NCBI GenBank assembly: GCA_020724555.1 | Contig: DYGT01000007.1 | Coordinates: 15,258-79,257 of the forward strand | Length of the DNA: 64,000 nucleotides | DNA from: Candidatus Microgenomatus sp. | GTDB lineage: Bacteria > Patescibacteriota > Microgenomatia > UBA8517 | Direction of reading: 5' to 3' | Shown: in pieces, positions 37,202 to 62,330 of the stretch | Numbering within the stretch: position 1 is the first letter of the stretch | How the letters are laid out: each line of letters opens with the position of its first letter | Notes under the pieces: generated by a model | The model's database searches: none | What the model was told of the DNA's origin: nothing | Seen by the model: only the letters and a program-made list of their open reading frames with translations | Made by a program: the position numbers and the translations under genes

Positions 37202-37204
37202 AGC

Positions 37205-37237: not shown

Positions 37238-37258
37238 CATTACACCCTATTACTATAT

Positions 37259-42127: not shown

Positions 42128-42129
42128 AA

Positions 42130-43023: not shown

Positions 43024-43159
43024 CTACATAACATTCTGATATTCTATAACAACTGCTTGAATTCAGCAATATTATGTGATTTTTAAGAGGTAAACGATAA
43101 AAAAATCTCAGGTAAAACATTCAGATAATTATCCGAAGCCGAAGTGGTACAATAGCTTC

Positions 43160-43537: not shown

Positions 43538-43550
43538 TTTCAACTATCCC

Positions 43551-44452: not shown

Positions 44453-44490
44453 GTCTTGATTATAGCCTGCCTTAGGTCAATAATACAGAA

Positions 44491-45246: not shown

Positions 45247-45272
45247 CTATCTATGCTAAACTAGCCTCATCT

Positions 45273-45734: not shown

Positions 45735-46317
45735 AGAGAAAGAACTACTCACAATTTTATCGAAAGTAGAGTATGAGAAGGTACTTGCTCGTCTAGTTAA
45801 AAAGTTTGGAGATCCTGAAATTGTCAAAAGGCTTTCGCTTCAATCAACAGATTACAGATGGGCGGATGTAGATACAAGAATCAGGATTACCAATGGAAAA
45901 GCTGAGATTATTCAAAAAGTTGGTGATTGGAAGAAACAAAACCGCCAGGAAATCACAATTCCTCTGCCTTCTGACCCCAAAATAATTTTTGACATGTACA
46001 AGATTTTTATGAATGCGATGCGAGATGAAAAGGTACTAACTCCAATAATGCAATACGAGAATAAGTTATTTAAAACCAAAAATTTTGAAATCAAATTAAC
46101 TTACCAGTTTGGCAAAAAAGATGCATACAATTGTGAAATTGAAGTTTTTGACCATGCCCTTGAGCCAGATGATTTGGCTAAAAAGTATAATATTCCAATT
46201 CACTTACCAGAACAAACCCAAGATTTTTGGAAAAATTGGAATGAAATTGTTAATTTATCAGCTACAGAATTATCGGATGATGAGTTGTTAAAAATAATTT
46301 CTAAATATATTAACTAA
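45727..46317 (+). CDS. Hypothetical protein (possible CYTH-like fold)
   Basis: Weak resemblance (IRITNG...EIEVF) to the triphosphate-tunnel family; low confidence. Confidence 0.25.
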   Translation: MTEEKELLTILSKVEYEKVLARLVKKFGDPEIVKRLSLQSTDYRWADVDTRIRITNGKAEIIQKVGDWKKQNRQEITIPLPSDPKIIFDMYKIFMNAMRDEKVLTPIMQYENKLFKTKNFEIKLTYQFGKKDAYNCEIEVFDHALEPDDLAKKYNIPIHLPEQTQDFWKNWNEIVNLSATELSDDELLKIISKYIN

Positions 46318-46318
46318 T

Positions 46319-46753
46319 ATGACTGAAAAACAGCACGATTTTGTTTTTGAGACTAAGTATTGGGAAGTATATCTCAACCCTGATCAGTATTACTTGGGTC
46401 GTTGTGTTGTTTTTGCAAAAAGAGATGTAGGAGCAATGAGTGAGTTAACTCGCGAAGAATGGCTTGATTTTGCAGAACTATCTCGAAAGATTGAAAAAGG
46501 GTTTAAACAAAAGTTTGGCGCAACAATGTTTAATTGGACTTGTCTTATGAATAATGCTTATCAAGAAGAAAATCCCCACCCTTGGGTGCATTGGCATATG
46601 AGACCAAGATATAAAAATCCAGTTGAATTTGCGGGCCAGAAATTTGAAGACAAAGAATTTGGGCATCATTATGCTAGGCAAACCGAACAAACAGTCTCGC
46701 CTGAAGTTTTTACTAAAATTGTTGAAGAAATAGAGAGCTTTTTAGAAAAATAA
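46319..46753 (+). CDS. HIT-like (histidine triad) nucleotide hydrolase/transferase
   Basis: His triad HPWVHWHMRP (HxHxHxx). Confidence 0.6.
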   Translation: MTEKQHDFVFETKYWEVYLNPDQYYLGRCVVFAKRDVGAMSELTREEWLDFAELSRKIEKGFKQKFGATMFNWTCLMNNAYQEENPHPWVHWHMRPRYKNPVEFAGQKFEDKEFGHHYARQTEQTVSPEVFTKIVEEIESFLEK

Positions 46754-46755
46754 CT

Positions 46756-47334
46756 ATGTACACAGAATTTGAAGCAACATTCACAGATATCAGTAAAGAT
46801 GAAGCAAGAGAAAAACTTAAAAAAGCTGGGGCAAAGTTAGTTCGTGAGGAGTATCTTCAAAAGCGTTGTGTTTTTAATCTTCCAAAAAGTCATGAAATAA
46901 AAGGAGGATGGCTAAGAGTGAGAGATGAAGGAGACAAAATCACAATGAGCCTCAAAATTGTTGATGGAGATAAAATTGAAAATCAAAAAGAAACACAACT
47001 TGTAATTGATAATTTTGAAAATGCAGTAAATCTTTTTGAAAGCATTGGATGTATCAAAAAAGCATATCAAGAAAGCAAACGAGAACTTTGGAAGTTAAAG
47101 GATGTCGAAATAACAATTGATGAATTGCCTTTCCTTGAGCCGTTTGTTGAAATTGAAGGCAAATCTGAAGAGGAAGTAAAAGAAGTAGCTCAGAAACTTG
47201 GACTTGATTATTCAAAAGCAAAATTCTGTGCTGTTGACACACTTTACTCTGAAAAATATGGCATTTCTGAAGACAGAATAAACAACCACACCCCAGAAAT
47301 ATTATTTGAATCAGAAAATCCATTTATTAAATGA
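46756..47334 (+). CDS. CYTH-domain protein (triphosphate tunnel metalloenzyme)
   Basis: N-terminal EFEATF (ExExK-like), WLRVRDEG, C-terminal ExE (FVEIEGK). Confidence 0.55.
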   Translation: MYTEFEATFTDISKDEAREKLKKAGAKLVREEYLQKRCVFNLPKSHEIKGGWLRVRDEGDKITMSLKIVDGDKIENQKETQLVIDNFENAVNLFESIGCIKKAYQESKRELWKLKDVEITIDELPFLEPFVEIEGKSEEEVKEVAQKLGLDYSKAKFCAVDTLYSEKYGISEDRINNHTPEILFESENPFIK

Positions 47335-48338
47335 AAACTCTAAAAATTGCAGTTGGAACTACATCCGAACAGAAGATTGGATATCTAAAAGAAGTTTTGG
47401 ATGAAATTGGGATAGGTGCTGAAATTGTCCCAACGGATGTCAAAAGTGGAGTTTCCGATCAGCCAATCACTGAAGAAGAAACTCAAACGGGCTCACTTAA
47501 CCGTGCTAAGGCTGCATTTGAAAGTGTTGAAGATGTCGATTTTGGGATTGGGATAGAAGTCGGATATCACAAAAATAAGAATGAGGATTTCGAGATGTTT
47601 TGCTGCACTTCAATCTTTGGCAAAGGTGAGGCTATAGCGAGTTGTTTTTCGACTAGGTTCTTGCTTCCTGATTTTCACCAACAGATATTAAAGGAAAATA
47701 AATATCTTGGAGAATATGTGCGTAAATACAAAGAAGAGGTTGACGAGCCAGTTATAAACTATACAAGAGAATTGGTCCGTGGCAGAAAACCGTTAATTGT
47801 TGAAGCAACAAGAAATGTCTTACTTCAATTTCTAGAACTACATGCAACAGTTAGCCATTTACTAAAGTCTGATAGCTTAGGTTATAGAGATAAATCACTT
47901 GGAGTAATAATAGACAAAGACAAAAATTTTCTCCTAGTCCAACTACATAGCTATGGAGAAAATGACTGGAATTTTCCTGGTGGCGGAATCGAAGACGGAG
48001 AAACTCCTGAAGAAGCCTTATTAAGAGAATTATCTGAAGAGCTTGGAAGTAAAAAATTCAAAATCCTTGCAAAAAGTGAAAAACAAATAGAGTATGATTG
48101 GCCTGATTTCATTATCGTCAAAGATATCAAAAAAAGAAACGGCAAAACTTTTAGAGGTCAAAGACAGCATATATTCTTGGTTGAATTTAGCGGAGGCAAA
48201 GATGAGATTAATCCTGACCCAGGTGAGATACGACATACTAAATGGGTGAAAAAAGATGAGTTAAAAGACCACCTCAATTTCCCCAGCCAGAAGGAAATAT
48301 TTGATGAGGTGATTAAGGAGTTGCTTACTGAATTATGA
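47331..48338 (+). CDS. Fusion protein: N-terminal YjjX/Ham1-like non-canonical NTP pyrophosphatase, C-terminal Nudix domain
   Basis: N-terminal KIAVGTTSEQKIGYLKEV...SGVSDQP (NTPase_I-T/Maf-Ham1 type); C-terminal Nudix box PGGGIEDGETPEEALLRELSEELG. Confidence 0.6.
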   Translation: MKTLKIAVGTTSEQKIGYLKEVLDEIGIGAEIVPTDVKSGVSDQPITEEETQTGSLNRAKAAFESVEDVDFGIGIEVGYHKNKNEDFEMFCCTSIFGKGEAIASCFSTRFLLPDFHQQILKENKYLGEYVRKYKEEVDEPVINYTRELVRGRKPLIVEATRNVLLQFLELHATVSHLLKSDSLGYRDKSLGVIIDKDKNFLLVQLHSYGENDWNFPGGGIEDGETPEEALLRELSEELGSKKFKILAKSEKQIEYDWPDFIIVKDIKKRNGKTFRGQRQHIFLVEFSGGKDEINPDPGEIRHTKWVKKDELKDHLNFPSQKEIFDEVIKELLTEL

Positions 48339-48377
48339 ATATTTATTTAAAAGGCAATTATAAATCATTCATCAGAC

Positions 48378-49082
48378 TTGATGTTTTCAAAACTAAAAAG
48401 AAAACAAATAAAGTGTATCTTAATGTGCATGGGTTATATGCCATGTCTGGAGACAGAGGTTCTAAGTCAAAGTTTTTTGGGAAACAGGACACTGGAGAAA
48501 AATATAGCCAATGTAGTCCAGTTTTCCTCCTCTCGTGACTGGAATATCTTCCCTCCAGATGGGACTTATTCAAAGCAACAAGAGTCATTCAAGGGTAAAA
48601 CTTTTGTGCAAGAAGCTCAAGATTTGAGAGATGCAATTGATTTGATTCTTGACCAAAGTAAATATCTTTTTGGTATCGAGAAAGGAAAGCTGAGATTTTA
48701 TATAGTAGCTAATTCAATCGGTGGAACCGTTACTACAACTTTAAAAGATAAGTTTAAATATATTGATAAAATCGTGTTGGCTGGATTTGGAACCAGACCG
48801 TCAGATTCCACAAAACCAATTCTTTCAACCTGTCCAACTGAAAAAGAAATTCTTGATTCGGCTGCAAAATTTAACGGAGAACTACTTTTTCTCCAAGGAA
48901 GCAAGGATGACGTGGTGCCCATTGAAGCGCAGGATAAATTGTTTGCAAGTTATAAGCATGCCAAAAAAGAAAAAGTGATTGTTGAAGGAGCAAATCACAA
49001 CTTCTCAAAGTTAAACGGAAAAGACAAAAGATTGGTTCAGAAATTGTATGTTGATTTCATTCTTAAATTTTTGGTCAAATGA
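48378..49082 (+). CDS. Alpha/beta-fold hydrolase
   Basis: Nucleophile elbow ANSIGG (GxSxG); catalytic Asp/His region (DDVVP, ANHNF). Confidence 0.55.
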   Translation: MMFSKLKRKQIKCILMCMGYMPCLETEVLSQSFLGNRTLEKNIANVVQFSSSRDWNIFPPDGTYSKQQESFKGKTFVQEAQDLRDAIDLILDQSKYLFGIEKGKLRFYIVANSIGGTVTTTLKDKFKYIDKIVLAGFGTRPSDSTKPILSTCPTEKEILDSAAKFNGELLFLQGSKDDVVPIEAQDKLFASYKHAKKEKVIVEGANHNFSKLNGKDKRLVQKLYVDFILKFLVK

Positions 49083-49597
49083 AATATCATCAAGACACAT
49101 ATTTATACAAAGGCACTAAGGTTACAAATACCTGGATTAAAACTGACAATCTTGAGAATTACTCTCCAATAACTCAGGTCTACGGAATCGTTTTTAACGA
49201 TAAAAATGAAGTCATAATTTGTCGTGAATCTAATAGCGGTAGCTGGATAATTCCAGGAGGACACCCAGAGGAAGGTGAATCTATTGAGCAAACACTAAAG
49301 CGAGAGCTTCAAGAAGAAGTGGATGTAGAGATCGAAGATATCAAACCATTAGGTGTCCAAAAGGTTACGTTTCCGGATGATGTTAATTCTGATAAAGCCA
49401 TATATCAAGTCAGATGTATTGCAAAACTCAAAAAACTGAATTCTCAAACTCCTGATCCTGCAAATGGGAATACTTGGGAGAGAAAATTTATTCCTGCTTC
49501 TGAAATTACAAACTATGTTAAGTGGGGAAAAACCGGAGAGGTAATGTTTAAGGATGCTGTTGAAGTTTATTCTTCTGGCTTGAAACCAATGATTTGA
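49079..49597 (+). CDS. Nudix hydrolase
   Basis: Nudix box GGHPEEGESIEQTLKRELQEEVDVE. Confidence 0.75.
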   Translation: MKYHQDTYLYKGTKVTNTWIKTDNLENYSPITQVYGIVFNDKNEVIICRESNSGSWIIPGGHPEEGESIEQTLKRELQEEVDVEIEDIKPLGVQKVTFPDDVNSDKAIYQVRCIAKLKKLNSQTPDPANGNTWERKFIPASEITNYVKWGKTGEVMFKDAVEVYSSGLKPMI

Positions 49598-49826
49598 TAC
49601 CCTTTTTCTTCTATCTCCTCTTTGCTCCAAAATGGTAAATCACGAGTTTTGACAATATATGTTACTTTCTTCTCAAGAGTTCTGCCTGTGTAATCTTTTT
49701 TCTCTGGATCCCACTCAAAACATCTCCTTCGTTACATTCAAAATCATTAAGCCTAACTTCGAAATTTTTGTCACCTTTTAATATTGCCTCAAAGTATGGT
49801 GGTTGAACTTTCTTTTCTATTTTCAT
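49568..49826 (-). pseudogene. DUF3850 (ASCH-like) gene interrupted by a frameshift near 49715
   Basis: MKIEKKVQPPYFEAILKGDKNFEVRLND...GDVL in one frame; the conserved continuation EWDPEKKDYTGRTLEKKVTYIVKTRDLPF...GYQIIGFKPEE* is in another frame. Confidence 0.5.
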
Positions 49827-50680: not shown

Positions 50681-51559
50681 CTAAACGGATAACTGTCTAA
50701 ATTGGGTTGGTGGCATTTTTAGTTTGGTGTGTATTCTTTGGTGGTTGTAGTAGTGGATTACTTGATGGATAGCCTCCACTAGTTCTCCAATTTTGTATTA
50801 AATCTCTCAAACTCCAGTCCCAGATCTGTCTTGAAATTGTTGTAAAAAGATTCTTGATATCCATTCTCCCAAGGACTACCTTTTTTACTCATACTGATTT
50901 TGATACCCAGCTTGTTTGTTAGTTGAGTGTATTCTTTTGATTTGTATTCACTTCCTTGGTCTGTATGAACAATTTGCGGTTTGCCTTGAGTGATAACAGC
51001 CTCAAGTAAGGCTTCAATTACCAGTTCTTTGGTGTGTCTGATTGAAATATTCCAGCCTACAATTTCTCTGGTATAAATATCCATAAATCTGGCTAAATAT
51101 ATAGTTTTACTGTTCCCACCTTAAATATGTAAAGTCACCAACATAAACAATGTTTGGTCCAATAGGGCAAGTGCCCTTAATCATGTTTGAATATCCAGCA
51201 TCAGGTTTTCTCAAATCTCTCCTTTTGCTCCACCTGGCTTTCCTTTTGTATGGCTTAATAGAGTAAAGCTTCATCACCCTTCTCACTCTTTTCTTGCCAA
51301 CAGGATGTTGAGGAGTGGATAAAGCAATAGCAATCCTTCTGTGGCCATAGCTTGGGTTTAATTCCAAGACCTGTAGTATCTGTTCTTTCAGGGATTCATC
51401 CTTGGTTTTAAGTTTGTTTGAGTGTAGATATAGTGATTCTCTGGATACCCCAAATAAATTTGAAATTAGACTTTTGGAGACATTTTTAACTTTCCCTTGG
51501 ATTAGCTCAACCAGATATCTTTTTTTTTGTTTTCTCCAGCTCAAAAGTGAGCACTCCAA
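50681..51559 (-). pseudogene. IS3 transposase OrfB (rve integrase core), disrupted by two frameshifts beyond the programmed one
   Basis: NIVYVGDFTYLRWEQ* then KTIYLARFMDIYTREIVGW in the +1 frame (break near 51084-51107); HTDQGSEY core; C-terminal IHYYNHQRIHTKL again in another frame (break near 50781). Confidence 0.7.
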
Positions 51560-51764
51560 TGATTTCTTTGAGCTGTTGATTTTCTTTTTTGAGCCTCACG
51601 TGTTCCATCCAGCTAACTTGCTTGGCTACTCCACCCCTTAACCAATTGTAAATTGTTTTTCTACTGACCCCATACTTTTCAGATAAACTGGAGTCTGGCT
51701 CACCTGTTTTAACTTTACCCAAAATCTCCTTTTTAACTTCTTTTGCGACTGTCTTTCTTTGCAC
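51507..51764 (-). CDS. IS3 transposase OrfA (HTH)
   Basis: HTH_Tnp_1 pattern, leucine zipper, followed by an AAAAAAAAA -1 frameshift window. Confidence 0.8.
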   Translation of the reverse strand: MQRKTVAKEVKKEILGKVKTGEPDSSLSEKYGVSRKTIYNWLRGGVAKQVSWMEHVRLKKENQQLKEIIGVLTFELEKTKKKISG

Positions 51765-51934
51765 AGTTTCACCTCCTTTTGTGTTTCAAGTATATAAGCA
51801 AGCTTGTTACTTGCGTAATAGAAACTGTGTGTATTTTAAGGGGTACCTGTCAATGCATATTTTACACCCTTTTATCATATTAAATCTCTTGACGGAATAG
51901 TCGCCTTTATCATGTGAGCGTAAAACTCCATGCG

Positions 51935-51954
51935 CCTGCCTGCCGGCAGGCAGG
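51935..51954. repeat. 20-bp perfect GC-rich palindrome CCTGCCTGCC|GGCAGGCAGG
   Basis: Exact dyad; 83 bp beyond the IS right end and ~140 bp upstream of blaI. Confidence 0.6.
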
Positions 51955-52082
51955 TAAGCACGGGGATGTAAGCTCAAAACAATCTCGCTTAAACGAGTGT
52001 TTCAAAATACCATCTGGCGTAAGCCGGTGGTAGTTTGTCTTAAAGGAAGGTTGATTGTTGGCTGCAAAACTCCTAGAATCTC

Positions 52083-52101
52083 TGTAGAGTATATGACTAC
52101 A
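52083..52101. promoter_or_regulatory. Imperfect dyad TGTAGagtATATgaCTACA overlapping the blaI-like start codon (possible autoregulatory operator)
   Basis: TGTAG/CTACA arms around an ATAT centre; ATG at 52093. Confidence 0.3.
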
Positions 52102-52419
52102 TACAATTTGGGTCCACTTGAACAGGAAATAATGAACTGCGTTTGGCGTAGTAAGGAGGTTTCGGTGAAAGATGTACATTCTTGTCTCAAAAAGTCTCGC
52201 AAGATCGCCTATACCACTGTAATGACAATAATGACAAGGCTGACAAAAAAGGGGTTTTTAACAAGAAAAAAGGTGGGTAAAGCCTATTTATATACCCCAA
52301 AGAATACGAAAGAAAAAGTGGCCAAAGGAATGGTCAAAAGAATCATTGATTCATTGGTTAATCAATATGGCACTGATGCAGTTACGGCATTTACTGATGA
52401 GCTTGAAAAAAGAAGATAA
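52093..52419 (+). CDS. BlaI/MecI/CopY-family transcriptional repressor (start at MTTYNL)
   Basis: Winged-helix N-terminus typical of penicillinase-repressor family proteins, ~110 aa; no C-terminal Cys cluster. Confidence 0.7.
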   Translation: MTTYNLGPLEQEIMNCVWRSKEVSVKDVHSCLKKSRKIAYTTVMTIMTRLTKKGFLTRKKVGKAYLYTPKNTKEKVAKGMVKRIIDSLVNQYGTDAVTAFTDELEKRR

Positions 52420-52430
52420 TTTATATAACC

Positions 52431-52463
52431 AAAGCTTGGCCTTCGGCTAAAGCAAAGCTTGGC
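52431..52463 (+). repeat. 33-nt element, copy B (identical to 37205-37237), in the blaI/M56 intergenic spacer
   Basis: Exact 33/33 match. Confidence 0.9.
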
Positions 52464-52466
52464 AAA

Positions 52467-53345
52467 ATGTTATTTATGATAATTAAAAGGAATTTTGTGA
52501 AAAAAGAGTTGAGATGTTTTTTAATAATAGTTACTGTTTTTATTTCATCAGTGTTTTTTCTTTTTGGCCTTCTTAAAAAATATTCTTTTTTTACATTAGA
52601 ACACTTCCTTGAAGTATGCAGGCAAGTTTCGTCTGGTTTTTTAGCTTCCGGTTTACAACACATTGGGTTTGGATTATTGGTTCTCACTTTCTTTTCTATA
52701 GCTATATTTTTCGTCAAAGCAATCTTTTCTTATATCAAGACCCAAAAGAAATTAGCCTCACTTTTGAATAGTAAAAGCAATGTTATCCCCGGAAAGCTAT
52801 TAAACGTTATTGAAAAGAATAAAGTTGAAAAAAACCTTATTTTCGTTGTTAATTTAAAAAAAGACATTGCCTTAACAATTGATTGGTCAGGGCCTAAAAT
52901 TATTCTTTCGACGGGATTAATAGACAAACTTGAACCTGAGGAGCTGGAGTCGGTGGTTTTGCATGAGTATTACCATGCCAAATACAGACACCCGCTAATG
53001 CTCATTATCAGCGAGATTGTTTCGGACACTTTATTTTTCATTCCAGTCTATAAGGATCTACACAAATATTTCAGATCTCTGCTGGAAAAAGAAGCTGACG
53101 ATTTCGTTAGTAGCTTACAAAACGGAGCAACTTCTTTAGATTTGGCGCTTTCTAAAGTAGAAACAGAGACTCGTTTTCCTATTTTTCCCTCTTTTTCAAA
53201 AAGAATTGATCATAAAATAAGCAGGAGAAATGCGGTCCTTTCTGTTTTGACAGTAACCGTTGGTTTGGCCCTTTATCTTCTACCTACCCAAACATACGCT
53301 TCATGGGGTAATTCACATAATTTTTCTGAAGTATGCATAAGATAA
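52467..53345 (+). CDS. BlaR1/MecR1-like M56 metallopeptidase membrane protein without a penicillin-binding sensor domain
   Basis: 4 TM helices; HExxH zinc motif LHEYYHAKYRHP; length 292 aa. Confidence 0.7.
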   Translation: MLFMIIKRNFVKKELRCFLIIVTVFISSVFFLFGLLKKYSFFTLEHFLEVCRQVSSGFLASGLQHIGFGLLVLTFFSIAIFFVKAIFSYIKTQKKLASLLNSKSNVIPGKLLNVIEKNKVEKNLIFVVNLKKDIALTIDWSGPKIILSTGLIDKLEPEELESVVLHEYYHAKYRHPLMLIISEIVSDTLFFIPVYKDLHKYFRSLLEKEADDFVSSLQNGATSLDLALSKVETETRFPIFPSFSKRIDHKISRRNAVLSVLTVTVGLALYLLPTQTYASWGNSHNFSEVCIR

Positions 53346-53408
53346 TCAATGAAATTTCTTCTAATTAGTTATTGACAGATAAACAGATTTTTTACTACAC
53401 TTTGTAGT

Positions 53409-54173
53409 ATGTCTAAAAAAAGTTATACATTTACCCTTCCAAGTAATTTGACACCAGTGCTTCTTGTTGTGGTAATTGGTCTTACTTTTGGAGTCGGTAT
53501 TCTTTGGCAAAAAGTTCAAAACCTCGAAAGTAGCACAAGTACTAGAGTAGCGGCCGGTACAGCCAAAGTTGGTAATCCTCAAGAGGCAGCTCCCCAAGCT
53601 CCTCCACAAGCAGGAGAAGTAGAACCGGTTGATGAAGAAGACCATGTGCGAGGCAACAGGAATGCAAAAATTGCTTTGATTGAATACTCTGATTTGGAAT
53701 GCCCTTTTTGTAAAGCTTTTCACCCCACAGCAAGCCAGGCCATTAAGGAGTATCCCAATGACGTGATGTGGGTATATAGGCATTTTCCCTTGGACCAGCT
53801 TCACTCAAAAGCCGATAAACAAGCTGAAGCTGTTGAGTGTGCAGGAAAACTTGCAGGTGACGATGGTTTTTGGAAGTTAACAGATAAGATATTTGAGGTT
53901 ACACCATCAAACAACGGGCTGGACAATAGCACACTTCCCGATTTGGCAGCCAGTGTGGGTATTAACAAATCACAGTTTCAGGCGTGCCTTGATTCCGGAG
54001 AGTTTGCGAGTCATGTGGAAGAAGATTACCAATCTGGTATCAAAGCAGGTGTGACGGGAACTCCGGGAAATATATTGCTTAATACCGTGACAGGCGAAAC
54101 ACAACTTATTCCGGGAGCCGTACCATATCCTCAACTAAAACAAGCAATCGACGCTATGCTTTCTGAAAGCTGA
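53409..54173 (+). CDS. DsbA-like thioredoxin-fold protein, membrane-anchored/exported
   Basis: N-terminal TM/signal; CxxC active site ECPFCKAF; thioredoxin-fold length. Confidence 0.7.
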   Translation: MSKKSYTFTLPSNLTPVLLVVVIGLTFGVGILWQKVQNLESSTSTRVAAGTAKVGNPQEAAPQAPPQAGEVEPVDEEDHVRGNRNAKIALIEYSDLECPFCKAFHPTASQAIKEYPNDVMWVYRHFPLDQLHSKADKQAEAVECAGKLAGDDGFWKLTDKIFEVTPSNNGLDNSTLPDLAASVGINKSQFQACLDSGEFASHVEEDYQSGIKAGVTGTPGNILLNTVTGETQLIPGAVPYPQLKQAIDAMLSES

Positions 54174-54181
54174 CATGGACA

Positions 54182-54913
54182 ATGGTTCCTTTTACTTTAC
54201 TTAATCTGGCAATCGCCTTTTTGGCAGGCTTTCTTACTTTTTTTGCGGGTTGCCTGGCACCGGTTGCTCCTGTTTATATAAGTTTTCTGGCGGGCGTTAC
54301 CCCCGATGAGATAAAAGGGAAACATAAAAGAGTATTCCTGGGAAACTCACTACTTTTTACTTCTGGTTTTTTGTTTGTATTTTTACTTTTGGGGCTAACT
54401 GTTAACTCTTTGGCAAGGATACTGGGAAGCTACAGACCGCTTCTAAATAAAATCGCAGGAGTGTTTTTATTTTTTTTTGGCTTGTTTTTAGGAAAATTTG
54501 TAAACATTCCCCTCCTAAACAGAACCTTCGTCCTGAAAAAGAGCACGAAGGATATTGGCGCCTTTACTCTTGGAGCTACATTCGGCTTTGCCTGGACTCC
54601 TTGCGTGGGACCGGTCTTGGCTGCAATTTTATTTTGGGTTAGCTCCAAGTCAAGCTTAATTGCCGGATTGCCGCTTTTGGTTCTTTTTGCGCTCGGCCTT
54701 GGCACACCCTTTGTCTTGATAGGGTTAGGTTTTGATAAATTCTGGCCACTGTTTAAGAGCCTTAATAAATACTCATTTTGGTTAAATAGGGTTGGGGGAA
54801 TAATTTTAATTGTCTTTGGGGTTCTTATTTTTACAAATAATTTTTCAGTTATCTCGGCCTTTCTTTTGGCGAAACTGGGAAGCCCGGCGTTTAACTTAGA
54901 GCTTAAACAATAA
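54182..54913 (+). CDS. ccdA: CcdA/DsbD-beta family thiol-disulfide electron transporter
   Basis: 6 TM helices with the two conserved Cys (GCLAPVAP and WTPCVGP). Confidence 0.75.
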   Translation: MVPFTLLNLAIAFLAGFLTFFAGCLAPVAPVYISFLAGVTPDEIKGKHKRVFLGNSLLFTSGFLFVFLLLGLTVNSLARILGSYRPLLNKIAGVFLFFFGLFLGKFVNIPLLNRTFVLKKSTKDIGAFTLGATFGFAWTPCVGPVLAAILFWVSSKSSLIAGLPLLVLFALGLGTPFVLIGLGFDKFWPLFKSLNKYSFWLNRVGGIILIVFGVLIFTNNFSVISAFLLAKLGSPAFNLELKQ

Positions 54914-54960
54914 TTACATATTTCGTTTTTTTACTACATATTGTAGTATATATTTAAATT

Positions 54961-55602
54961 ATGTCTGACATAGACTACCCAAGCGAGTGGAACGATCTGC
55001 CAAAAAGGGAAAGAAAACAAAAAATCAAGGAGCTTAAGAGACAAAAACAGAAAAAGGCTGATTTTGTTAAAAAAGCAAGAAATATCGGCATTGTGGTTGT
55101 TTTATTTGTAGCTCTAATTGGCGGATACAAATTCATGACTCAAAAGTCTCCCCAAGAGCTAGCCTTTGAGCAGGAGGTAAATGAAGTGTCTTTAGAGGGA
55201 AAGGTAGAAGAATTTCCGATCGAGGGCGTCGAGCATGTTTCAGCTGAAACAACTGTGGAATACAAGACAAATCCGCCAACGTCAGGGCCTCATTTTGCAC
55301 AAGCACAAAACTGGGGTGTGTATGACAAAGAGATTGACGATAAAGCCGCAGTCCATGCTTTGGAACACGGAGGTATCTGGATTTCTTATAAAGATATAAG
55401 CGATGATGAAAAAAATATTTTAGAGGAAATTGGTAGGGAAAACTCAGGGAGTGCGATAGTTTCACCAAGGGGTGCAAATGATGTAAAAATCGCGGTGGTT
55501 TCCTGGGGAAGGATGATGAAACTAGATACTGCCGATAAAGCTCCTATCCAAAAATATATTGACACTTATAAAAACCAATCTCCTGAGAGATTGGCCCGAT
55601 AA
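54961..55602 (+). CDS. DUF3105 domain membrane-anchored protein
   Basis: TM anchor; TNPPTSGPHF...HALEHGGIWISY motifs characteristic of DUF3105. Confidence 0.55.
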   Translation: MSDIDYPSEWNDLPKRERKQKIKELKRQKQKKADFVKKARNIGIVVVLFVALIGGYKFMTQKSPQELAFEQEVNEVSLEGKVEEFPIEGVEHVSAETTVEYKTNPPTSGPHFAQAQNWGVYDKEIDDKAAVHALEHGGIWISYKDISDDEKNILEEIGRENSGSAIVSPRGANDVKIAVVSWGRMMKLDTADKAPIQKYIDTYKNQSPERLAR

Positions 55603-55610
55603 ATCATCTC

Positions 55611-55639
55611 TTGACATATACCCTAGGGGGGTATATAGT
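55611..55639 (+). promoter_or_regulatory. Promoter (TTGACA-17-TATAGT) overlapped by a CsoR-type operator dyad ATATACCC-tag-GGGGGTATAT
   Basis: TTGACA 55611-55616; GC-core pseudo-palindrome 55616-55636 resembles the B. subtilis copZA CsoR operator TACCCTACGGGGGTA (recalled, not checked). Confidence 0.5.
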
Positions 55640-55648
55640 ATATTTATT

Positions 55649-55921
55649 ATGGACAACGGAGGCTTTAAAGGTCAGGCCGAAAGGCGGATAAATATTATTA
55701 AAGGCCAACTGGACGGTCTTTTTAAAATGATAGATAAGGATGAGTATTGCACTGATATTCTCGACCAGTCACTCGCGATTCAGAATTCCCTCAAGAGCCT
55801 TGACGGGCTTATCTTGGAACGCCATTTAAGAATCCATGCCGCGGATCAATTCAAAAACAATAAAGAAAAAGCTGTAAATGAGTTACTTAAAATTTTCAAG
55901 AAAAAACAAAGAAATGACTAA
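55649..55921 (+). CDS. csoR: CsoR/RcnR-family metal-sensing repressor (DUF156), start at MDNGGF
   Basis: Four-helix-bundle-size protein with Cys (EYCTDIL) and HxxxH (RHLRIH) metal-site positions; precedes the P1B-ATPase. Confidence 0.65.
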   Translation: MDNGGFKGQAERRINIIKGQLDGLFKMIDKDEYCTDILDQSLAIQNSLKSLDGLILERHLRIHAADQFKNNKEKAVNELLKIFKKKQRND

Positions 55922-58016
55922 GAAATACACCTGTCCGATGCACCCCGAAGTTATATCGGATAAACCCGGAAAATGCCCCAAATGTAAAATGGATCTAGTG
56001 CCAATGGATGAAATGAAAGATGGTGGTGGGCACGAGCACCATGACCACGCCAGCATGATGGCAAGCCCGGAAGCTGCAGCAGATTTTCTGAAACGTTTTT
56101 TTATTGTTACTGCCCTTTTGGTTCCCCTGGCTATTTTTTCCGAACCGGCAGTAAAATTTTTAGGGACTCCGGATTTTGTGCTTAGGCCATATTTGGAGTT
56201 TGGTATTGCCACAATCATTTTTTACTTCAGCTTAGTCTTTTTTCAACATGCAAGGCACGAAATTATATCCCGACAATACGGAATGATGACCTTAGTTTCG
56301 CTTGGAGTTGGTGCGGGTTATCTTTTTTCTGCTGCCTCAACCTTTATCCCGGCAATTGAAGTTGAATTTTATCTGGAGATTTCAACACTTATCTGGGTTC
56401 TTCTTTTTGGCCACTTTCTGGAAGCTAAGTCCAGCTCTGCCGCCGGTGATGCCCTTGCTGAGGTGGCAAAATTACTCCCAAAAGAAGCGCACCTGAAAAC
56501 CGATAACGGCGTAAAGGAAGTAGAAATTGCATCTTTAAAAGAAGGAGATATTGTAATTGTTAAAGCAGGGGAAAAAGTGCCGGCAGACGGAATCATTGTA
56601 AAGGGTGGAGGAAATTTTAACGAATCCCATATTACCGGTGAAAGCAGACCGGTTGAAAAATCTGTCAAAAGTGGAGTTGTTGCCGGGGCAATTAATATTG
56701 ACGGGTCGGTAGAGGTCAAGCTCACCCGTGTGGGCGAAAGCTCGACGCTTGGGCAAATACAAAATCTGATAGCTTCGGCCAAACAAACCAAGCCTTCCGT
56801 ACAAAAGTTGGCTGATAGGGCGGCCAAATGGCTTACATTTTCTGCTTTGGGCGTGGCCTTTCTGACCTTAATAGTATGGTCGGTTATAGTCGGGCAACCC
56901 CTTGTTTTTGCGGCAACGCTGGCAATTACAGTCTTGGTCATTGCTTGCCCCCATGCTCTGGGACTGGCTATCCCGACGGTTTCTACCATTGCCACCAGGC
57001 TTGCCGTAAACAACGGAGTTTTTATTAAAGACATGGGAAAGATTGAAGTTGTCAAGGATGCTACCTATGTGGTTTTTGATAAAACAGGAACGCTTACTAA
57101 AGGCGAATTTGGTGTAACAAAGATTGAATCCTTCGTTGGGTCCAAAAACGAGCTTTTGGAAATAGCCGGGGCCATTGAGGCAAACTCATCGCATGTTATT
57201 GGTATGGCAATTTACCAACATTTGGCTATGGAAAAGATAAAACCTAAGGAAGTTACAAAGGTAAAAAACTTGGCTGGACGAGGGATGGAAGCGGAGCTAT
57301 CGGGCAAGAAATATTTTGTGGGGAATAAAAGACTCATGGAGGAAACAGGAGTGTGGAGCGACAAAGCGCAAAAAGTATTGGACGAGATGTCTGAGGAAGG
57401 TAGGACACCGGTTTTTGTGGCAAGCCAGGAGCAGCTTTTGGGTGTTATAGCACTTAGCGATGAGATTAAAGAGGAATCAAAACAAGCGATTAATGAACTG
57501 CATAAATTGGGAGTGAAAGTTGCCATGCTCACGGGGGACACGAAAGCTGCTGCCCGACCCATTGCTAAAAAGCTTGGGATAGACACTATTTTTGCCGAAG
57601 TACTGCCAGAGGATAAATATAAATATGTTCGTAAGCTTCAAGAAAAGAGTAATGTGGTGATAATGGCTGGTGATGGCGTAAATGATGCACCTGCTTTGAC
57701 CCAAGCCAATGCAGGAGTGGCAATTGGAGCGGGGACCGATGTCGCGGTGGAAGCCGGAGACATTGTCTTAACGCAAAGTAATCCCCAGCATTTAGTGCGG
57801 CTTATTGTCTTGGCAAGAAAAGTTTACAAAAAAATGGTTGAAAATCTCATCTACGCGGTTGGTTATAACGTCTTGGCAATTCCTGCCGCGGCAGGACTTT
57901 TTATTCCCTTTGGGTTCAGGCTTACTCCTGCAGTCGGGGCGCTTCTCATGAGCGCCAGTTCCGTGATTGTTGTCATCAATGCCATGACTTTAAGAAAAGC
58001 AAAACTTGAAGTTTAA
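55914..58016 (+). CDS. copB: Copper-translocating P1B-type ATPase, CopB-like (CPH motif); alternative start 55878
   Basis: N-terminal CPMHPE...CPKC metal-binding motif and His-rich stretch GGGHEHHDH; TM CPH; DKTGTLT; GDGVNDAPAL; ATGA overlap with the csoR stop. Confidence 0.85.
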   Translation: MTKKYTCPMHPEVISDKPGKCPKCKMDLVPMDEMKDGGGHEHHDHASMMASPEAAADFLKRFFIVTALLVPLAIFSEPAVKFLGTPDFVLRPYLEFGIATIIFYFSLVFFQHARHEIISRQYGMMTLVSLGVGAGYLFSAASTFIPAIEVEFYLEISTLIWVLLFGHFLEAKSSSAAGDALAEVAKLLPKEAHLKTDNGVKEVEIASLKEGDIVIVKAGEKVPADGIIVKGGGNFNESHITGESRPVEKSVKSGVVAGAINIDGSVEVKLTRVGESSTLGQIQNLIASAKQTKPSVQKLADRAAKWLTFSALGVAFLTLIVWSVIVGQPLVFAATLAITVLVIACPHALGLAIPTVSTIATRLAVNNGVFIKDMGKIEVVKDATYVVFDKTGTLTKGEFGVTKIESFVGSKNELLEIAGAIEANSSHVIGMAIYQHLAMEKIKPKEVTKVKNLAGRGMEAELSGKKYFVGNKRLMEETGVWSDKAQKVLDEMSEEGRTPVFVASQEQLLGVIALSDEIKEESKQAINELHKLGVKVAMLTGDTKAAARPIAKKLGIDTIFAEVLPEDKYKYVRKLQEKSNVVIMAGDGVNDAPALTQANAGVAIGAGTDVAVEAGDIVLTQSNPQHLVRLIVLARKVYKKMVENLIYAVGYNVLAIPAAAGLFIPFGFRLTPAVGALLMSASSVIVVINAMTLRKAKLEV

Positions 58017-58019
58017 CTT

Positions 58020-59243
58020 TTACTCATATCTTAGTGCCTCAATGGGTTGTAAACCGGCGGCTTTGTAAGCCGGATACCAGCCAAAAAGAACTCCTATTGC
58101 TCCCGATACCCCCATGGCCAAAAAGACCGAAGTGAGCGACAGGGTAAAAGGCAAATTAATTATCTGGGATAAAACATATGAAGTACCGGTCCCCAGCGCC
58201 ATGCCGATAACACCACCCGCAAAAGTGAGAATTATTGATTCAATAAGAAATTGGGTAATGATAATTTTTTTCTTAGCCCCCAAGGCTTTCCTCAGGCCAA
58301 TCTCTCTTGTCCTCTCGGTAACGGTAACCAGCATAATATTCATTATTCCTATTCCCCCAACCAAAAGGGAAATGGCGGCAATGCCGGAAAGAAGAGCAGA
58401 AAAAGTGCCGGTAATGCTGGACGCCGCCCCCAGGATGTCGTTTTGGGAAAAAATAGTAAAGTCGGCCGCTGCCGGGTCTTTTAGTTTGTGTCGGGCAAGA
58501 AGCAAATAACCGATTTCATCTTGGGCTTGAGCCATGACATTCTCGTCATGGACCTCAACGGAAATCGAGGACACATAATCCGCTCCAAAAAGCTGTTTTT
58601 GGGCGGTTGTCAAAGGCACAAGCACCATATCATCCTGATTTTGAAAGCCCGTTCCTCCGCGGCTTTCAGTAACTCCGACAACCCTAAATGAAACATTATT
58701 AATACGGATTGATTGCCCAACCGGGTTCGCCCCTTCGCCAAAAAGATCAGTAACCACCTGAGGGCCAAGTACGGCGACTTTTGTCATTGCTTCAACGTCC
58801 CGCTCGCTTATAAAAGAGCCGGAAGCGAGATTAACCTTTCTCACCTGACTGTAAGAGGGAGTAACGCCTAAAATCTGGGTGTTGGTATTGTTTTTCGCGG
58901 TGGTCACTTGAGTTCTTCGCGAAAATTCAGGAGAGACATCTTTTACGGTTGTAATTTCAGAAGATGTTAGTAGGGCCCTTGCGTCTTCATAGGTAAGACT
59001 TGTCGCTTCCCCGGTTGCACCCCGGACAGAACCGCTGCTCGTGGCACCCGGGATTACCGTAAGAAGATTTGAGCCAAGAGATTGAATTTGCTCAGTAACG
59101 GCTTTTTGGGAAGATTGGCCTAAAGATACCAAAGCAATGACACTGCCAATCCCAATAACAATCCCCAAAGTTGCCAGGCCAGTCCTTAGCTTGTTTAAGG
59201 TCAGGGTGCCAATGGCTTCAAAAAACAATTCTGAAAAGTCCAT
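58020..59243 (-). CDS. MacB/FtsX-family ABC transporter permease
   Basis: N-terminal TM, large periplasmic domain, C-terminal FtsX-type 3-TM bundle. Confidence 0.8.
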   Translation of the reverse strand: MDFSELFFEAIGTLTLNKLRTGLATLGIVIGIGSVIALVSLGQSSQKAVTEQIQSLGSNLLTVIPGATSSGSVRGATGEATSLTYEDARALLTSSEITTVKDVSPEFSRRTQVTTAKNNTNTQILGVTPSYSQVRKVNLASGSFISERDVEAMTKVAVLGPQVVTDLFGEGANPVGQSIRINNVSFRVVGVTESRGGTGFQNQDDMVLVPLTTAQKQLFGADYVSSISVEVHDENVMAQAQDEIGYLLLARHKLKDPAAADFTIFSQNDILGAASSITGTFSALLSGIAAISLLVGGIGIMNIMLVTVTERTREIGLRKALGAKKKIIITQFLIESIILTFAGGVIGMALGTGTSYVLSQIINLPFTLSLTSVFLAMGVSGAIGVLFGWYPAYKAAGLQPIEALRYE

Positions 59244-59246
59244 AAG

Positions 59247-59945
59247 CTAATTCTTTGTCCTTTTTTGCCGGTGATGATTGCTGTCATTGACGACCTTTCC
59301 ATCTCTTAGATGAATAATCCTTTTGGCATGTTCGGCGATGTCGGGTTCGTGGGTAATCATAACTATGGTATGCCCCTTATCGTTAAGGTCCTGAAAGATT
59401 GCCATAATTTCTTCTGCCTGGGCTGTAGCAATATTACCCGTTGGTTCATCTGCCAAAATAAGCCTTGGGTTCATTACTAAAGCTCTGGCAATCGCGGCTC
59501 GCTGTTGCTGGCCTCCTGAAAGCTGACTTGGCGTGTGGTCAATTCTGTCTGCCAAGCCAACCATTTCTAAAAATTTCTTTGCTCTTTTTGTTCTTTCTTT
59601 TTTTGCTATTCCGCCGTAAACCATAGGCAGGGCAACATTTTTAAGGGCTGTCGTGCGCGCCAAAAGATTAAACGCCTGAAAGACAAAGCCAATTTTTCTA
59701 TTCCTGATGTCCGCAAGCTCATCGTCTGTTAGTTTACCGACATTTTCTTTATCCAAAAGATAAGTCCCTTTTGTCGGAAGGTCTAACGCCCCCATAATGT
59801 GCATAAGAGTACTTTTTCCGCTCCCCGAAGCTCCCATGATCGCCACAAACTCACCTTCTTTTATCTCAAATGAGACGTCATCAAGGGCAATTGTTTCTAC
59901 GGAATCGTTTTTGTAGATTTTTGAAACATGAGTAAGTTGAATCAT
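59247..59945 (-). CDS. ABC transporter ATP-binding protein (MacB-type ATPase)
   Basis: Walker [10 protein letters not shown], signature LSGGQQQR, Walker B ILADEPTG. Confidence 0.9.
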
Positions 59946-59947
59946 AT

Positions 59948-61231
59948 TTATCTTTGTTGTTCACCGGCAAAACCTCCCGGCCTAAAGGCTCCTCCGCCAA
60001 ATCCGCCTCCGCCAAAGGCAGAGCTTCCCCCTTGTTGATTTATTGTTCCTATAATGACTTCGTCGCCTTCTGAAAGCCCCGACACGATTTCTGTTTGCGT
60101 ATCACCAGTAAGCCCTATTTCAACCGGGATTGCTTGTTCCCGGCCATCTCGCAAAACTCTGACAAACGCTTGTCCGGCCCGAAACTGAATAGCCACCGAG
60201 GGAATTACAAGGACATCTGCCTTGGTCTCAATGATAATATTGGCGCTCGCCGCCATATTAGGAAAGATTTCAGAGAGGGGAGTATCAAGCTGGATTAGGC
60301 TTTGGTAGCTTGTGACATTGTTGCTGGTTGTCCCGATCCTATCGACTGTTACCACCCTCCCACTAAAGATTTTGTCCGCTAAACTATCGAGCATCACTGT
60401 GGCTTTTTGGTCAATTTTTACCTTTGGGACATCTATTTCAGTTATGTTGACGCTGATAATGGGATTTACCTCGTTTTGGATAACGGCTACTCGCTGTGAT
60501 GAGCTGGTGGTTTGATTTGTTGAAGTAGCTTCATGGGTAAGCACCATCCCAGGGACAATCCCGACATTACTGACAACTCCGGAAATAGGAGCCGTAATAA
60601 CAGGCGAGGTGGATTGATAGGATAGCCAGGCGCTATTTAAAGCCGCCTTTGCCTGGTCAATGACTGCCTGTTGATTTTTATATTTTGCCTCCGCGGCTAA
60701 CCAGTCGGCATTTTGCTCAATATAAGTGGGATCGTCGGCCGACAAATCTCTGGCAACCGCATCGTTTATAAACTTTTGGTTGGCAGCAAACATTGCGGAT
60801 TGAAGGGTATAAAGGTTGGTATAAGCCGAGTCAACGCTGTTTTTAGCCGAGAGATAACTTGACCAGTTAGATGCATTTTTTTGTTGACCCTCTTTGTCCA
60901 AGGCAATTTCGGCAATTTTCGCTCCGGCCGCCACTTTATCGCCGTCTTTGACATAGACTGCTTTCACTACTCCGGAGGCCTAGGTTGTAACATTGACAAT
61001 GTTGGCAGCCAGAACGTTACCGGAAGCGGAAACGGTGGAAACGATTGTCCCCTTTTGGGCTATGGCGGTTTGAGACACGGGCTGTTGAGCTTCATTGGTT
61101 AAGCTTGAGAAGATAAACCAACCAATTCCTAAAACGGCGACGATTAAAACAATTTTTATAGGAAGCGAGCGCCTGGAGAACCAGCCTACAATTTTCGCAG
61201 GGCTTTTTAAAACATTACTAACAACACTCAT
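59948..61231 (-). pseudogene. HlyD/MacA-family periplasmic adaptor interrupted by an in-frame TAG at 60980-60982
   Basis: N-terminal TM piece (60983-61231) and C-terminal lipoyl/beta-barrel piece (59948-60967) are in the same frame, separated only by TAG (...NIVNVTT*ASGVVKAVYVKDGDKV...). Confidence 0.7.
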
Positions 61232-61286
61232 AGAGCGAAGTTTACAAAGCGAATCTGAAAATTAGCTGAAGAATAAGAAGTTGATT

Positions 61287-62330
61287 TTATAGGGTCTTGT
61301 GCTTTACAGGAAGCCGGACGGTAAAAACACTTCCCTTGCCGGGCGTACTTTCAACGCTTATTTTGCCGTGATGGGATTCAACAATTTTTTTGGCAATAGA
61401 AAGCCCCAGTCCATACCCCACTGCCCTGTCTTTACTTCTGGCGAAATCGGCACGCCAAAAGCGGTCAAAAATATGGGGTAAATCTTTCTCATTGATTCCG
61501 ATTCCATAATCAGATACGCTTATCAGGATTGAGCCATCGGTTTTTTCTGAAGCAATTGTGACTGATTTTTCTTTTGGGCTGTACTTAATGGCATTATCAA
61601 GAAGGATGACCAGTAAGTCGGTCAGCGCATATTGATCGGCTTCAAGTTCAAAGTTTTGGGATTTATCTTTAAGCGTGATTTTCTTTTTTGTGGCTTGCGG
61701 TTTAACTTTTTGGATTGATTTTTTTATTATCGAAGCAAGAGACACTTTCTCAAATTTGCTGCTATTGTTTGGTTTTTGGTAAGAAGCCAGCCGAAGCAGC
61801 CCCTCAGATAGAGATTGGAGTTTATCTACCTCTTCAATATTTTCCTTAATTAATTTTTTAGCGTCGGCAAGAGTCAGGCGTTTATCCCTGAGGTGAACCT
61901 CTAAGGCGGCCTTAAGAGAAGTAAGAGGGGTTTTAAGTTCATGAGAAGCATCGGAAATAAATTGATTTTGTTCGTCGACCATGTTTTTAATCGGCTTTAA
62001 GGTCTTTCCTGCAAGAAAATAGCCAAGTCCACTGGAGACCACCAAAATTCCGCCATTAATAATTACCAAAAAGAAAATTAAACGCTGTTTTGTTTCTTCA
62101 ACCAACTCCGGATCAGTAAGGATTCTTGGAGGAGTATTGCGGAAACGGGATTCGGGTGACATAAATTCCTGCCCGCTGAGACGCCTTTCAATTTGTAGCC
62201 CCTGAAGATGAGAAAAGCGATTTAATTCTGCCGTCAGCACTTTATAGATAACCGTGCTAAAACCAATGCTAATCAGCATGATTATCAGTAAATACCAGGC
62301 GGTTAGTTTAAGTCGTGCTTTACCAAACAT
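61287..62330 (-). CDS. Sensor histidine kinase (membrane-anchored)
   Basis: 2 TM, H-box HELKTPLTSL, N/G boxes. Confidence 0.85.
   Translation of the reverse strand: MFGKARLKLTAWYLLIIMLISIGFSTVIYKVLTAELNRFSHLQGLQIERRLSGQEFMSPESRFRNTPPRILTDPELVEETKQRLIFFLVIINGGILVVSSGLGYFLAGKTLKPIKNMVDEQNQFISDASHELKTPLTSLKAALEVHLRDKRLTLADAKKLIKENIEEVDKLQSLSEGLLRLASYQKPNNSSKFEKVSLASIIKKSIQKVKPQATKKKITLKDKSQNFELEADQYALTDLLVILLDNAIKYSPKEKSVTIASEKTDGSILISVSDYGIGINEKDLPHIFDRFWRADFARSKDRAVGYGLGLSIAKKIVESHHGKISVESTPGKGSVFTVRLPVKHKTL

Follow-up and report, generated by a model that had tools for sequence, protein, structure and literature searches.

We describe a locus in a 64,000-nucleotide stretch of a Candidatus Microgenomatus contig (DYGT01000007.1; the whole stretch is here called the window) in which a BlaI-family repressor and an M56 membrane protease, a pair normally associated with beta-lactam resistance, appear to regulate a set of exported thiol-redox proteins within a copper-resistance cluster. 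Judged by sequence comparison, the arrangement appears to recur across many uncultured bacteria of the candidate phyla radiation (CPR). We read the locus as a probable two-circuit copper-stress island of a Microgenomates-type CPR bacterium, with one circuit for the envelope and one for the cytoplasm, and assign this reading a probability of roughly 0.6. A preliminary interpretation of the bare DNA (the sequence-only reading) had named a run of seven genes here; seven open reading frames (ORFs) do lie in a row at 51997-58016 on the forward strand, and the ORF list, Pfam and NCBIfam bore out all seven family calls. The window belongs to a JGI metagenome contig of 124 kb, and by homologue comparison its closest relatives are Roizmanbacteria- and Woesebacteria-type CPR genomes. 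We did not find the module described in the searchable literature on DUF3105, on copper and DsbA in CPR bacteria, or on BlaR1, CopY and M56 together with copper. The genes are:

52093..52419, +, BlaI/MecI/CopY-family winged-helix repressor of 108 amino acids (Pfam, NCBIfam, orthologue alignment)
52467..53345, +, M56 membrane zinc metalloprotease with a BlaR1-type transmembrane (TM)/protease core (Pfam, alignments, BlaR1 profile, Foldseek)
53409..54173, +, DsbA-like thioredoxin-fold protein, membrane-anchored and exported (Pfam DsbA/Thioredoxin_4, motifs)
54182..54913, +, CcdA/DsbD_TM membrane thiol-disulfide electron conduit (Pfam; Cys24, Cys141)
54961..55602, +, DUF3105 protein (Pfam, 105 bits)
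55649..55921, +, CsoR-family repressor of 90 amino acids (Pfam Trns_repr_metal)
55878..58016, +, P1B-3 (CopB-type, CPH) heavy-metal ATPase (NCBIfam, motifs)

BlaI-type operators and the conserved module

The sequence-only reading had predicted that BlaI-type operators would be found upstream of dsbA/ccdA. A repeat search returned two 32-nt copies, each holding the perfect dyad TACTACA-N3-TGTAGTA. With 14 specified bases, this pattern has exactly two perfect matches in the 64 kb, the next best having 3 mismatches; at up to 3 mismatches there are 7 matches in the window, a total that no shuffle reached. The two perfect dyads lie over the promoters of dsbA, as predicted, and of the DUF3105 gene. 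The opposite outcome, sites confined to the repressor's own promoter or to unrelated loci, does not hold in the window.

53393..53409, +, operator 1, TACTACA-CTT-TGTAGTA, a perfect dyad whose last base is the A of the dsbA ATG
54932..54948, +, operator 2, TACTACA-TAT-TGTAGTA, a perfect dyad 12 nt before the DUF3105 ATG
53372..53401, +, dsbA promoter TTGACA-18-TACACT (promoter search; TTGACA invariant in relatives)

Both target dyads occupy classic repressor positions, and the TACACT -10 element of dsbA sits within the left half-site of operator 1. Because only 7 nt separate this -10 element from the ATG, the dsbA transcript is suggested to be leaderless.

The putative repressor itself matches Pfam PF03965 (Penicillinase_R) at 97.2 bits against a cut-off of 22.6, and its nearest solved structures in the PDB are M. 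tuberculosis BlaI (2g9w), MecI and BlaI. Its start is most likely ATG 52093, giving 108 amino acids as in all orthologues, and not GTG 51997. Across orthologues Q-[YF]-G...A-F-[TV]-D is invariant in the C-terminal region. Its Q-[YF]-G element lines up with the scissile bond of MecI/BlaI (N101/F102), though this match is only suggestive; in the cryo-electron microscopy (cryo-EM) paper on BlaR1, N101/F102 is the BlaI cleavage site and lies in the C-terminal dimerisation region.

Conservation was assessed in homologous loci, designated by L-numbers, with L001 being the window's own contig region. Close loci are the neighbourhoods of M56 homologues at 42-68% identity, while the distant loci (L022/L023, a Nomurabacteria assembly; L024; L026) were reached through DUF3105 or a distant M56 representative. 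The BlaI-M56 pair is followed by a DsbA-like gene in all 16 loci that extend far enough (13/13 close and 3 distant), and DUF3105 is present in 11 of the 13 close loci and in 3/3 distant ones. CcdA occupies its position in 7/13 close loci; otherwise the slot holds a membrane protein of 172-184 amino acids with a GCASCG/CASC motif. Searching the 14 close loci (227 kb) for CTACA-N3-TGTAG with at most 1 mismatch gave 31 sites, 27 of which lie at the starts of blaI, dsbA, DUF3105 (or the Cys-rich x197 gene described below) or the inserted Cys-rich gene of L017. Four are scattered elsewhere, and ~7 sites would be expected by chance on a uniform-base estimate. Equivalents of operator 2 are found in L005 and, in L012, 5' of the x197-DUF3105 pair. 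The dsbA dyad is kept in 13/13 close lineages, fused to the invariant TTGACA, and three distant lineages carry, precisely at the promoters of blaI and dsbA, either TACA-N3-TGTA or CCTACA-N2-TGTAGG, the latter being the canonical cop/bla box. The linkage anticipated by the sequence-only reading is thus present in relatives at the level of both genes and sites, and because the operator is conserved along with the genes, coincidental adjacency is excluded. This conservation strongly supports a regulatory link between the repressor, the dyads and dsbA-ccdA/DUF3105, which we consider very probable.

Copper genes (CsoR, copper ATPases, multicopper oxidase, CopC, cupredoxin, YHS, YtkA and HMA) were counted around the module and occur within 10 kb of it in ~8/13 lineages; the copper linkage is frequent and not obligatory. 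At the distant loci the module lies amid genes for multicopper oxidase, YHS, YtkA and HMA proteins, CsoR and copper ATPases.

The DsbA-like protein has an N-terminal TM anchor, a CPFC motif at 98-101 and a second Cys pair (C144, C193), and CcdA carries one Cys in each of its two TM repeats (Cys24, Cys141). For both proteins the best NCBIfam match is to a selenoprotein-associated family and is far below cut-off: the Rcas_1661 thioredoxin-like (seleno)lipoprotein for the DsbA-like protein (82 bits) and the TsoB rhodanese/DsbD fusion for CcdA (40 bits). A 400-aa rhodanese gene lies near the module in L012. The DUF3105 protein has a single TM helix. Its N-terminal peptide (DYPEEWNELPKxERK) is cytoplasmic and conserved, and its exported domain lacks Cys and keeps E88, H92, H111, E135 and H136 invariant. 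It is 58-75% identical across Pace-, Nomura-, Parcu- and Roizmanbacteria (448 homologues), which is unusually strong for an uncharacterised protein. Its AlphaFold2 model has a predicted local distance difference test (pLDDT) score of 78.8, with low confidence in the most conserved segment (88-116); a Foldseek search of this model against the PDB returned weak thioredoxin-like matches only (best E ~9e-3, none at or below 1e-3).

Two further protein families were observed within the module. The GCASCG/CASC membrane protein, which takes the CcdA position in about half of the lineages, was located at L022 6410-6943, L024 6394-6933, L026 9855-10409, L017 12402-12941, L002 8384-8917 and L013 10321-10839. 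The motif and a C-terminal Cys are present in the four copies read (L017, L022, L024, L026), and the copies tested against Pfam (L002, L013, L022) had no significant match. The second family, x190/x197, comprises Cys-rich exported proteins inserted in the module at L017 10978-11550, L012 12592-13185 and L013 10918-11511. All three share EVW-L-DGCGG, the L017 copy adds CC and CCCKC runs, and the two copies tested (L012, L013) had no significant Pfam match. In L017 and L012 the gene has its own BlaI-type dyad upstream. Genes for type-IV secretion (TraG/VirB4-like, pilin, PrgI) and a relaxase adjoin the module in L022 (1-4007) and L024 (96-3584), and because they do so in these two distant genomes the module may be carried on an integrative conjugative element.

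The M56 protease and its cysteine tail

Against Peptidase_M56 the window protease scores 29.5 bits, just below the 31-bit cut-off, with M48 also among its best matches; its relatives score above the cut-off. Its zinc motif is HEYYH, and by family consensus its start would be GTG 52497. A profile built from 38 M56 homologues matches BlaR1 over residues 108-319 only (E=4e-10), with no match to the sensor domain. When a homologue (67% identical) was modelled with AlphaFold (pLDDT 78), the six best Foldseek matches were all BlaR1 cryo-EM structures (best E=4.6e-8). The M56 assignment is secure at the family level. The invariant residues H166/E167/H170, E207, D211 and R246 align with BlaR1 H201/E202/H205, E242, D246 and R293, and the catalytic residues of the window copy are all intact. 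The BlaR1 cryo-EM paper identifies R293/R294 as active-site residues and places autocleavage at S283/F284. The penicillin-binding (class D beta-lactamase-like) domain is absent from the window protease, which scores 28.6 bits against NF033108, where the cut-off is 1200 bits.

The sequence-only reading had called the protease sensor-less. This description applies to the window copy, and there only through a deletion; it does not apply to the family. In relatives, the tail that follows the last TM helix conserves nothing but C-x5-C-x3/4-C, frequently in the form CSTHC, and the loop between the first two helices carries an invariant Cys (Cys51 in the window) and a near-invariant His. This three-Cys (Cys3) tail is present in every other member of a 14-sequence alignment, and in the 38-sequence alignment conservation of the tail Cys is 90% or more. 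An exhaustive profile search of 1.84 billion representatives returned 123 M56 clusters at E<=1e-30, all of ~290-340 amino acids, and ~108 of the best 150 M56 representatives have the three-Cys tail. The window protein ends 20 residues past the last TM helix, halting at ...SEVCIR* just past the first tail Cys (Cys290), and is the sole copy lacking the CSxHC part of the tail, both in the 14-sequence alignment and among the copies in the loci. DNA alignment with relatives places a gap of ~50 nt in the window before the conserved dsbA promoter, pointing to loss of the Cys tail by deletion.

When the protein is aligned with BlaR1, its second helix corresponds to TM3 and its last helix to TM4, with the protease domain cytoplasmic. 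From this homology we infer that the loop and the tail would both face outward. On that predicted topology, four conserved outward-facing Cys provide a concrete sensor candidate for this M56 subfamily.

Proposed signal and mechanism, and the state of the switch in the window

We propose that the repressor would bind TACA-N3-TGTA (TACTACA-N3-TGTAGTA) over the -10/start regions of dsbA-ccdA and DUF3105 and, in relatives, at its own promoter as well, and that the M56 protease would be co-transcribed with the repressor and normally translationally coupled to it. In relatives, a disordered extracytoplasmic three-Cys tail, often with a His, together with the loop Cys would stand in for the penicillin-binding domain, and this Cys cluster would sense extracytoplasmic copper and/or thiol oxidation. 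Activated M56 would then cut the repressor at Q-[YF] or A-F, both of them conserved, and cleavage would derepress the DsbA-like oxidoreductase, the CcdA conduit and DUF3105, an exported His-rich protein; these may repair or prevent copper-induced thiol damage. In the second circuit the cue would be cytoplasmic metal, with CsoR acting at ATATACCC-N5-GGGTATAT in its own promoter to control the CopB-type efflux ATPase. We consider proteolytic control by M56 probable. Sensing of copper or thiols through the M56 Cys tail comes close to an even bet without quite reaching it. The most elaborate version is held tentatively: the Cys3 tail and loop Cys may form a direct Cu(I)/thiol-redox sensor that gives two-compartment copper sensing in combination with CsoR, DUF3105 may be a new copper-handling protein or enzyme working with the DsbA-like protein and CcdA, and the module may travel on conjugative-element-like islands in some lineages.

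Envelope thiol or copper signalling was also what the sequence-only reading had preferred to beta-lactam sensing, and the preference fits the missing penicillin-binding domain, the gene content and the precedent of PetR/PetP. In Synechocystis, the sensor-less M48/M56 protease PetP degrades the BlaI-family regulator PetR only with copper, by a copper-sensing mechanism that is unresolved (bioRxiv 10.1101/2020.07.31.226407).

Several observations weigh against the proposed reading. Loci L005-7, L013, L017, L019 and L021 are without any searched-for copper gene within 10 kb. A single tail Cys is present in ~25 of the best 150 M56 representatives, and the putative sensor is missing in the window. 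The loop and the Cys tail are low-confidence and disordered in the AlphaFold2 model, and the topology of M56 is that expected by homology with BlaR1. Repressor-operator binding, repressor cleavage and the identity of the signal are likewise deductions from sequence. BlaR1 cleaves itself spontaneously, and this self-cleavage does not serve as the signal, which makes the proposed activation step less certain. PetR also differs in binding GAC-N5-GTC and in acting as an activator too, whereas here TACA-N3-TGTA dyads are found in repressor positions only; the ligands proposed for PetP are two Met in the TM2-TM3 loop, and here the conserved Met pair is replaced by the invariant Cys and near-invariant His of the loop, with the Cys3 tail in addition.

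The reading must also contend with the condition of the switch in the window itself, for which the following features are relevant:

52051..52079, +, promoter-like site TTGATT-17-TAGAAT of the repressor-protease operon (TTGAT-type -35 and -10 position both kept in relatives)
52072..52092, +, degraded autoregulatory operator CCTAgAATCT[ct]GTAG[ag]TAT (comparison with blaI sites of relatives)
52426..52463, +, ~1.65 units of a 23-nt tandem repeat (AGCAAAGCTTGGCCTTCGGCTAA), 38 nt, between the repressor and protease genes
50779..51764, -, IS3-type transposase remnant, with pieces of a helix-turn-helix (HTH) orfA and an rve orfB (ORFs; Pfam rve and HTH_28 in L001)

In relatives the blaI operator is CCTACAAT-N-TGTAGTAT, abutting the ATG, and was found in 10/14 loci. 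The window copy is uniquely damaged, by a C-to-G substitution that turns TACA into TAGA in the left half-site and by an insertion (net 4 nt) within the dyad, although the TTGAT-type -35 and the -10 element are retained. The sequence-only reading had nominated a dyad at 52083-52101 as a BlaI-type operator. We reject this candidate: the dyad is everted (TGTAG..CTACA) and overlaps the start codon and the right half of the mutated relic of the autoregulatory site.

It is possible, at somewhat less than even odds, that the BlaI/M56 pair of the window is a decaying remnant with no inducible function, leaving the module permanently repressed, or constitutive if the repressor is unstable. Such decay would account for the tail deletion found only in this copy and for the substitution and 4-nt insertion found only in its auto-operator, and would sit well with an insertion sequence (IS) element upstream and a repeat inserted between the repressor and M56 genes. 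Against this, both ORFs are intact with all catalytic residues conserved, both target operators are perfect, full-length variants with a single-Cys tail exist elsewhere, and one metagenome contig is the only source of the data. Because the tail is deleted, the auto-operator mutated and the two genes split by the repeat while the target operators are perfect, the regulon here is probably locked or differently controlled. The switch in this population would then probably be uninducible or rewired.

For the family as a whole, the wiring could be as proposed while the signal is a general envelope or protein-folding cue, such as misfolded exported proteins or membrane stress, with the tail Cys forming structural disulfides. 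CenIR would fit this: it is a BlaIR system without a sensor, has a C-terminus predicted to be disordered and controls envelope genes, and no inducing signal was found for it; according to the CenIR work, most BlaIR systems lack a sensor and what they respond to is largely unknown. The lineages without nearby copper genes, the M56 representatives with one tail Cys and the predicted disorder of the tail would also be expected under such a cue. We nevertheless regard it as unlikely. The C-x5-C-x3/4-C spacing and the loop Cys are kept among very divergent sequences while the remaining tail is not, all members of the regulon are exported Cys- or His-based proteins, and copper islands surround the module in the ~8/13 lineages noted above.

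It is very improbable that the repressor senses metal itself as CopY does, with M56 a mere housekeeping or turnover protease: CopY/TcrY (TIGR02698) is the repressor's best NCBIfam match, at 58 bits far under the 122-bit cut-off, and the operators hold the cop-box core TACA..TGTA (exactly TACAnnTGTA in distant relatives), but direct metal sensing is unlikely because the repressor has no CopY-type C-terminal CxCx4CxC, nor any C-terminal Cys, and its sole two Cys (16 and 31) are missing from several orthologues. The M56 gene, moreover, is always adjacent, usually overlapping or within 5 nt of the repressor gene.

If the proposed reading is correct, with a thiol- or copper-responsive M56 switch over dsbA-ccdA and DUF3105, the locus indicates how ultra-small CPR cells arrange envelope defence against copper and thiol stress. 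It provides the first regulatory and functional context for DUF3105, the GCASCG membrane protein and the Cys-rich exported protein. The regulon is clearly bounded and has near-identical operators; like the sensor candidate, it could be studied heterologously without culturing CPR bacteria.

Neighbouring elements and related systems

Between the repressor and protease genes, the sequence-only reading had noted a 33-nt element that might modulate their coupling. The element (52426-52463, 38 nt, 97% identical to 37200-37237) proved to be a mobile repeat of 23-nt units and not a dedicated regulator, and its sole evident effect is a wider gap. The blaI-M56 gap is at most 5 nt or an overlap in 11/15 lineages; in the window the 38-nt insertion widens it to 47 nt. 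We reject the idea of a structured RNA or attenuator: the repeat element has no significant fold (z=-0.08), Rfam gave no match in 51500-58200 at E up to 1, the repeat occurs inverted and between the blaI operator and the ATG in L009/L020, and arrays of up to ~5.5 units occur in unrelated metagenome contigs. A pattern search of the loci for the short element with a guessed gap gave no match. The effect of the repeat here would be incidental at most, an uncoupling of blaI and M56. At 37180-37332, the other copy in the window has a second copy of the 5' 21 nt of tRNA-Gln(CTG) on one side and the complete tRNA-Gln (37259-37332) on the other, and at L028 967-1225 a 5.5-unit array is flanked likewise by a repeated 5' 20 nt of tRNA-Thr(GGT) and the complete tRNA. 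From these arrangements it seems that the repeat may insert or expand at the tRNA D-loop 'GGTA', duplicating the 5' part of the tRNA.

The two regulatory layers of the sequence-only reading, BlaI/M56 and CsoR, are both present, but they do not converge on one unit: csoR-copB forms a separate circuit because it has its own promoter and CsoR-type operator, and no BlaI-type site was found at this unit.

55611..55639, +, csoR-copB promoter TTGACA-17-TATAGT, near-consensus (promoter search)
55616-55636, +, CsoR-type operator ATATACCC-N5-GGGTATAT, inside the csoR-copB promoter

GC-core dyads resembling this site are also found 5' of csoR in L012 and L014. The start of the window CsoR is most likely ATG 55649 (90 amino acids), and the protein belongs to the CsoR/RcnR family (PF02583, 67.9 bits). 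Its ligand pattern is C-H-H (YC...ERHLRIH) and not the x-C-H-C of Cu(I)-CsoR, so its metal specificity may differ from that of classical Cu(I)-CsoR. The CsoR that precedes a CPH-type ATPase in L014 (6942-7208) is also C-H-H, while paralogues in L012 and L014 (4379-4651) are canonical C-H-C (H-x3-C). In the Arguello classification, P1B-3 ATPases have CPH in TM4, N-x5-GYN-x4-P and M-S-x-S-[ST]-x5-N in the last TM helices, and a His-rich N-terminus. The window ATPase (547 bits against TIGR01511) contains CPH357, the N-x5-GYN-x4-P motif as NLIYAVGYNVLAIP, MSASSVIVVIN (MSASS-x5-N) and DKTGT401, and its N-terminus carries a heavy-metal-binding domain (HMBD) with CPMHP..CPKC and a His-rich stretch, HEHHDH.

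The flanking DNA provides context outside the regulon. The IS3-type remnant lies ~330 bp 5' of the repressor gene, and between it and the repressor promoter is a perfect 20-nt GC-rich palindrome, CCTGCCTGCCGGCAGGCAGG (51935-51954), which could be an IS end or a terminator. The region 5' of the remnant (~42000-49600; L001 1-7131) is unusually rich in NUDIX, MazG-like, HIT, CYTH, NTPase and nucleotidyltransferase genes. Immediately downstream of the ATPase gene and convergent with it, at 58020-62330 on the reverse strand and beyond, lie a MacB-type ABC exporter, made up of an FtsX/MacB_PCD permease, an ATPase and a periplasmic adaptor whose tail is Gly-rich, as well as a HisKA/response-regulator pair.

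Several parts of the locus can be compared with known systems. The csoR-copB unit resembles CsoR-CopA/CopB operons in having a CsoR-family repressor, a GC-core dyad in its own promoter and a P1B ATPase as the next gene, and differs in its third ligand, which is His and not Cys (C-H-H), and in its CPH/P1B-3 ATPase with an HMBD and a His-rich N-terminus. The reductive pathways ScsB/ScsC (suppressor of copper sensitivity) and DsbD/DsbC pair an exported DsbA-like CxxC protein with a DsbD-family conduit and are linked to copper tolerance. The likeness to Scs is an analogy of function only: the CcdA found here is a minimal, TM-only protein, and Scs is not known to have BlaI/M56 control or a DUF3105 partner.

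CenIR of Clostridioides difficile and the M. tuberculosis BlaI/BlaR pair Rv1846c/Rv1845c share with this module a protease without a beta-lactam domain and envelope-related regulons. The CenR C-terminus is predicted to be disordered, as is the M56 tail here, and the M. tuberculosis repressor (2g9w) is the closest solved structure. Their targets are different (Cwp6 and CDR_0474; blaC and others), and neither a Cys3 tail nor a copper/thiol context is reported there. With BlaI/BlaR1 and MecI/MecR1 of Staphylococcus and Bacillus, the module shares the winged-helix repressor, TACA/TGTA dyads over promoters, autoregulation (in relatives), the same protease catalytic residues and, on the suggestive alignment above, a conserved aromatic residue at the position of the BlaI N101/F102 site. 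Unlike them, it has no penicillin-binding sensor and no beta-lactamase or PBP2a target, its dyads have N3 spacing in this lineage, and the extracellular loop of the protease is much shorter.

By analogy, PetR/PetP is the closest known system. In both cases a small BlaI-family regulator without the CopY Cys site is encoded just upstream of, and coupled to, a HExxH membrane protease of ~300 amino acids that lacks a beta-lactam domain; both have a small local regulon, and copper is the context or likely signal. The targets are plastocyanin and cytochrome c6 in Cyanobacteria for PetR/PetP and, in these CPR bacteria, the DsbA-like protein, CcdA and DUF3105.

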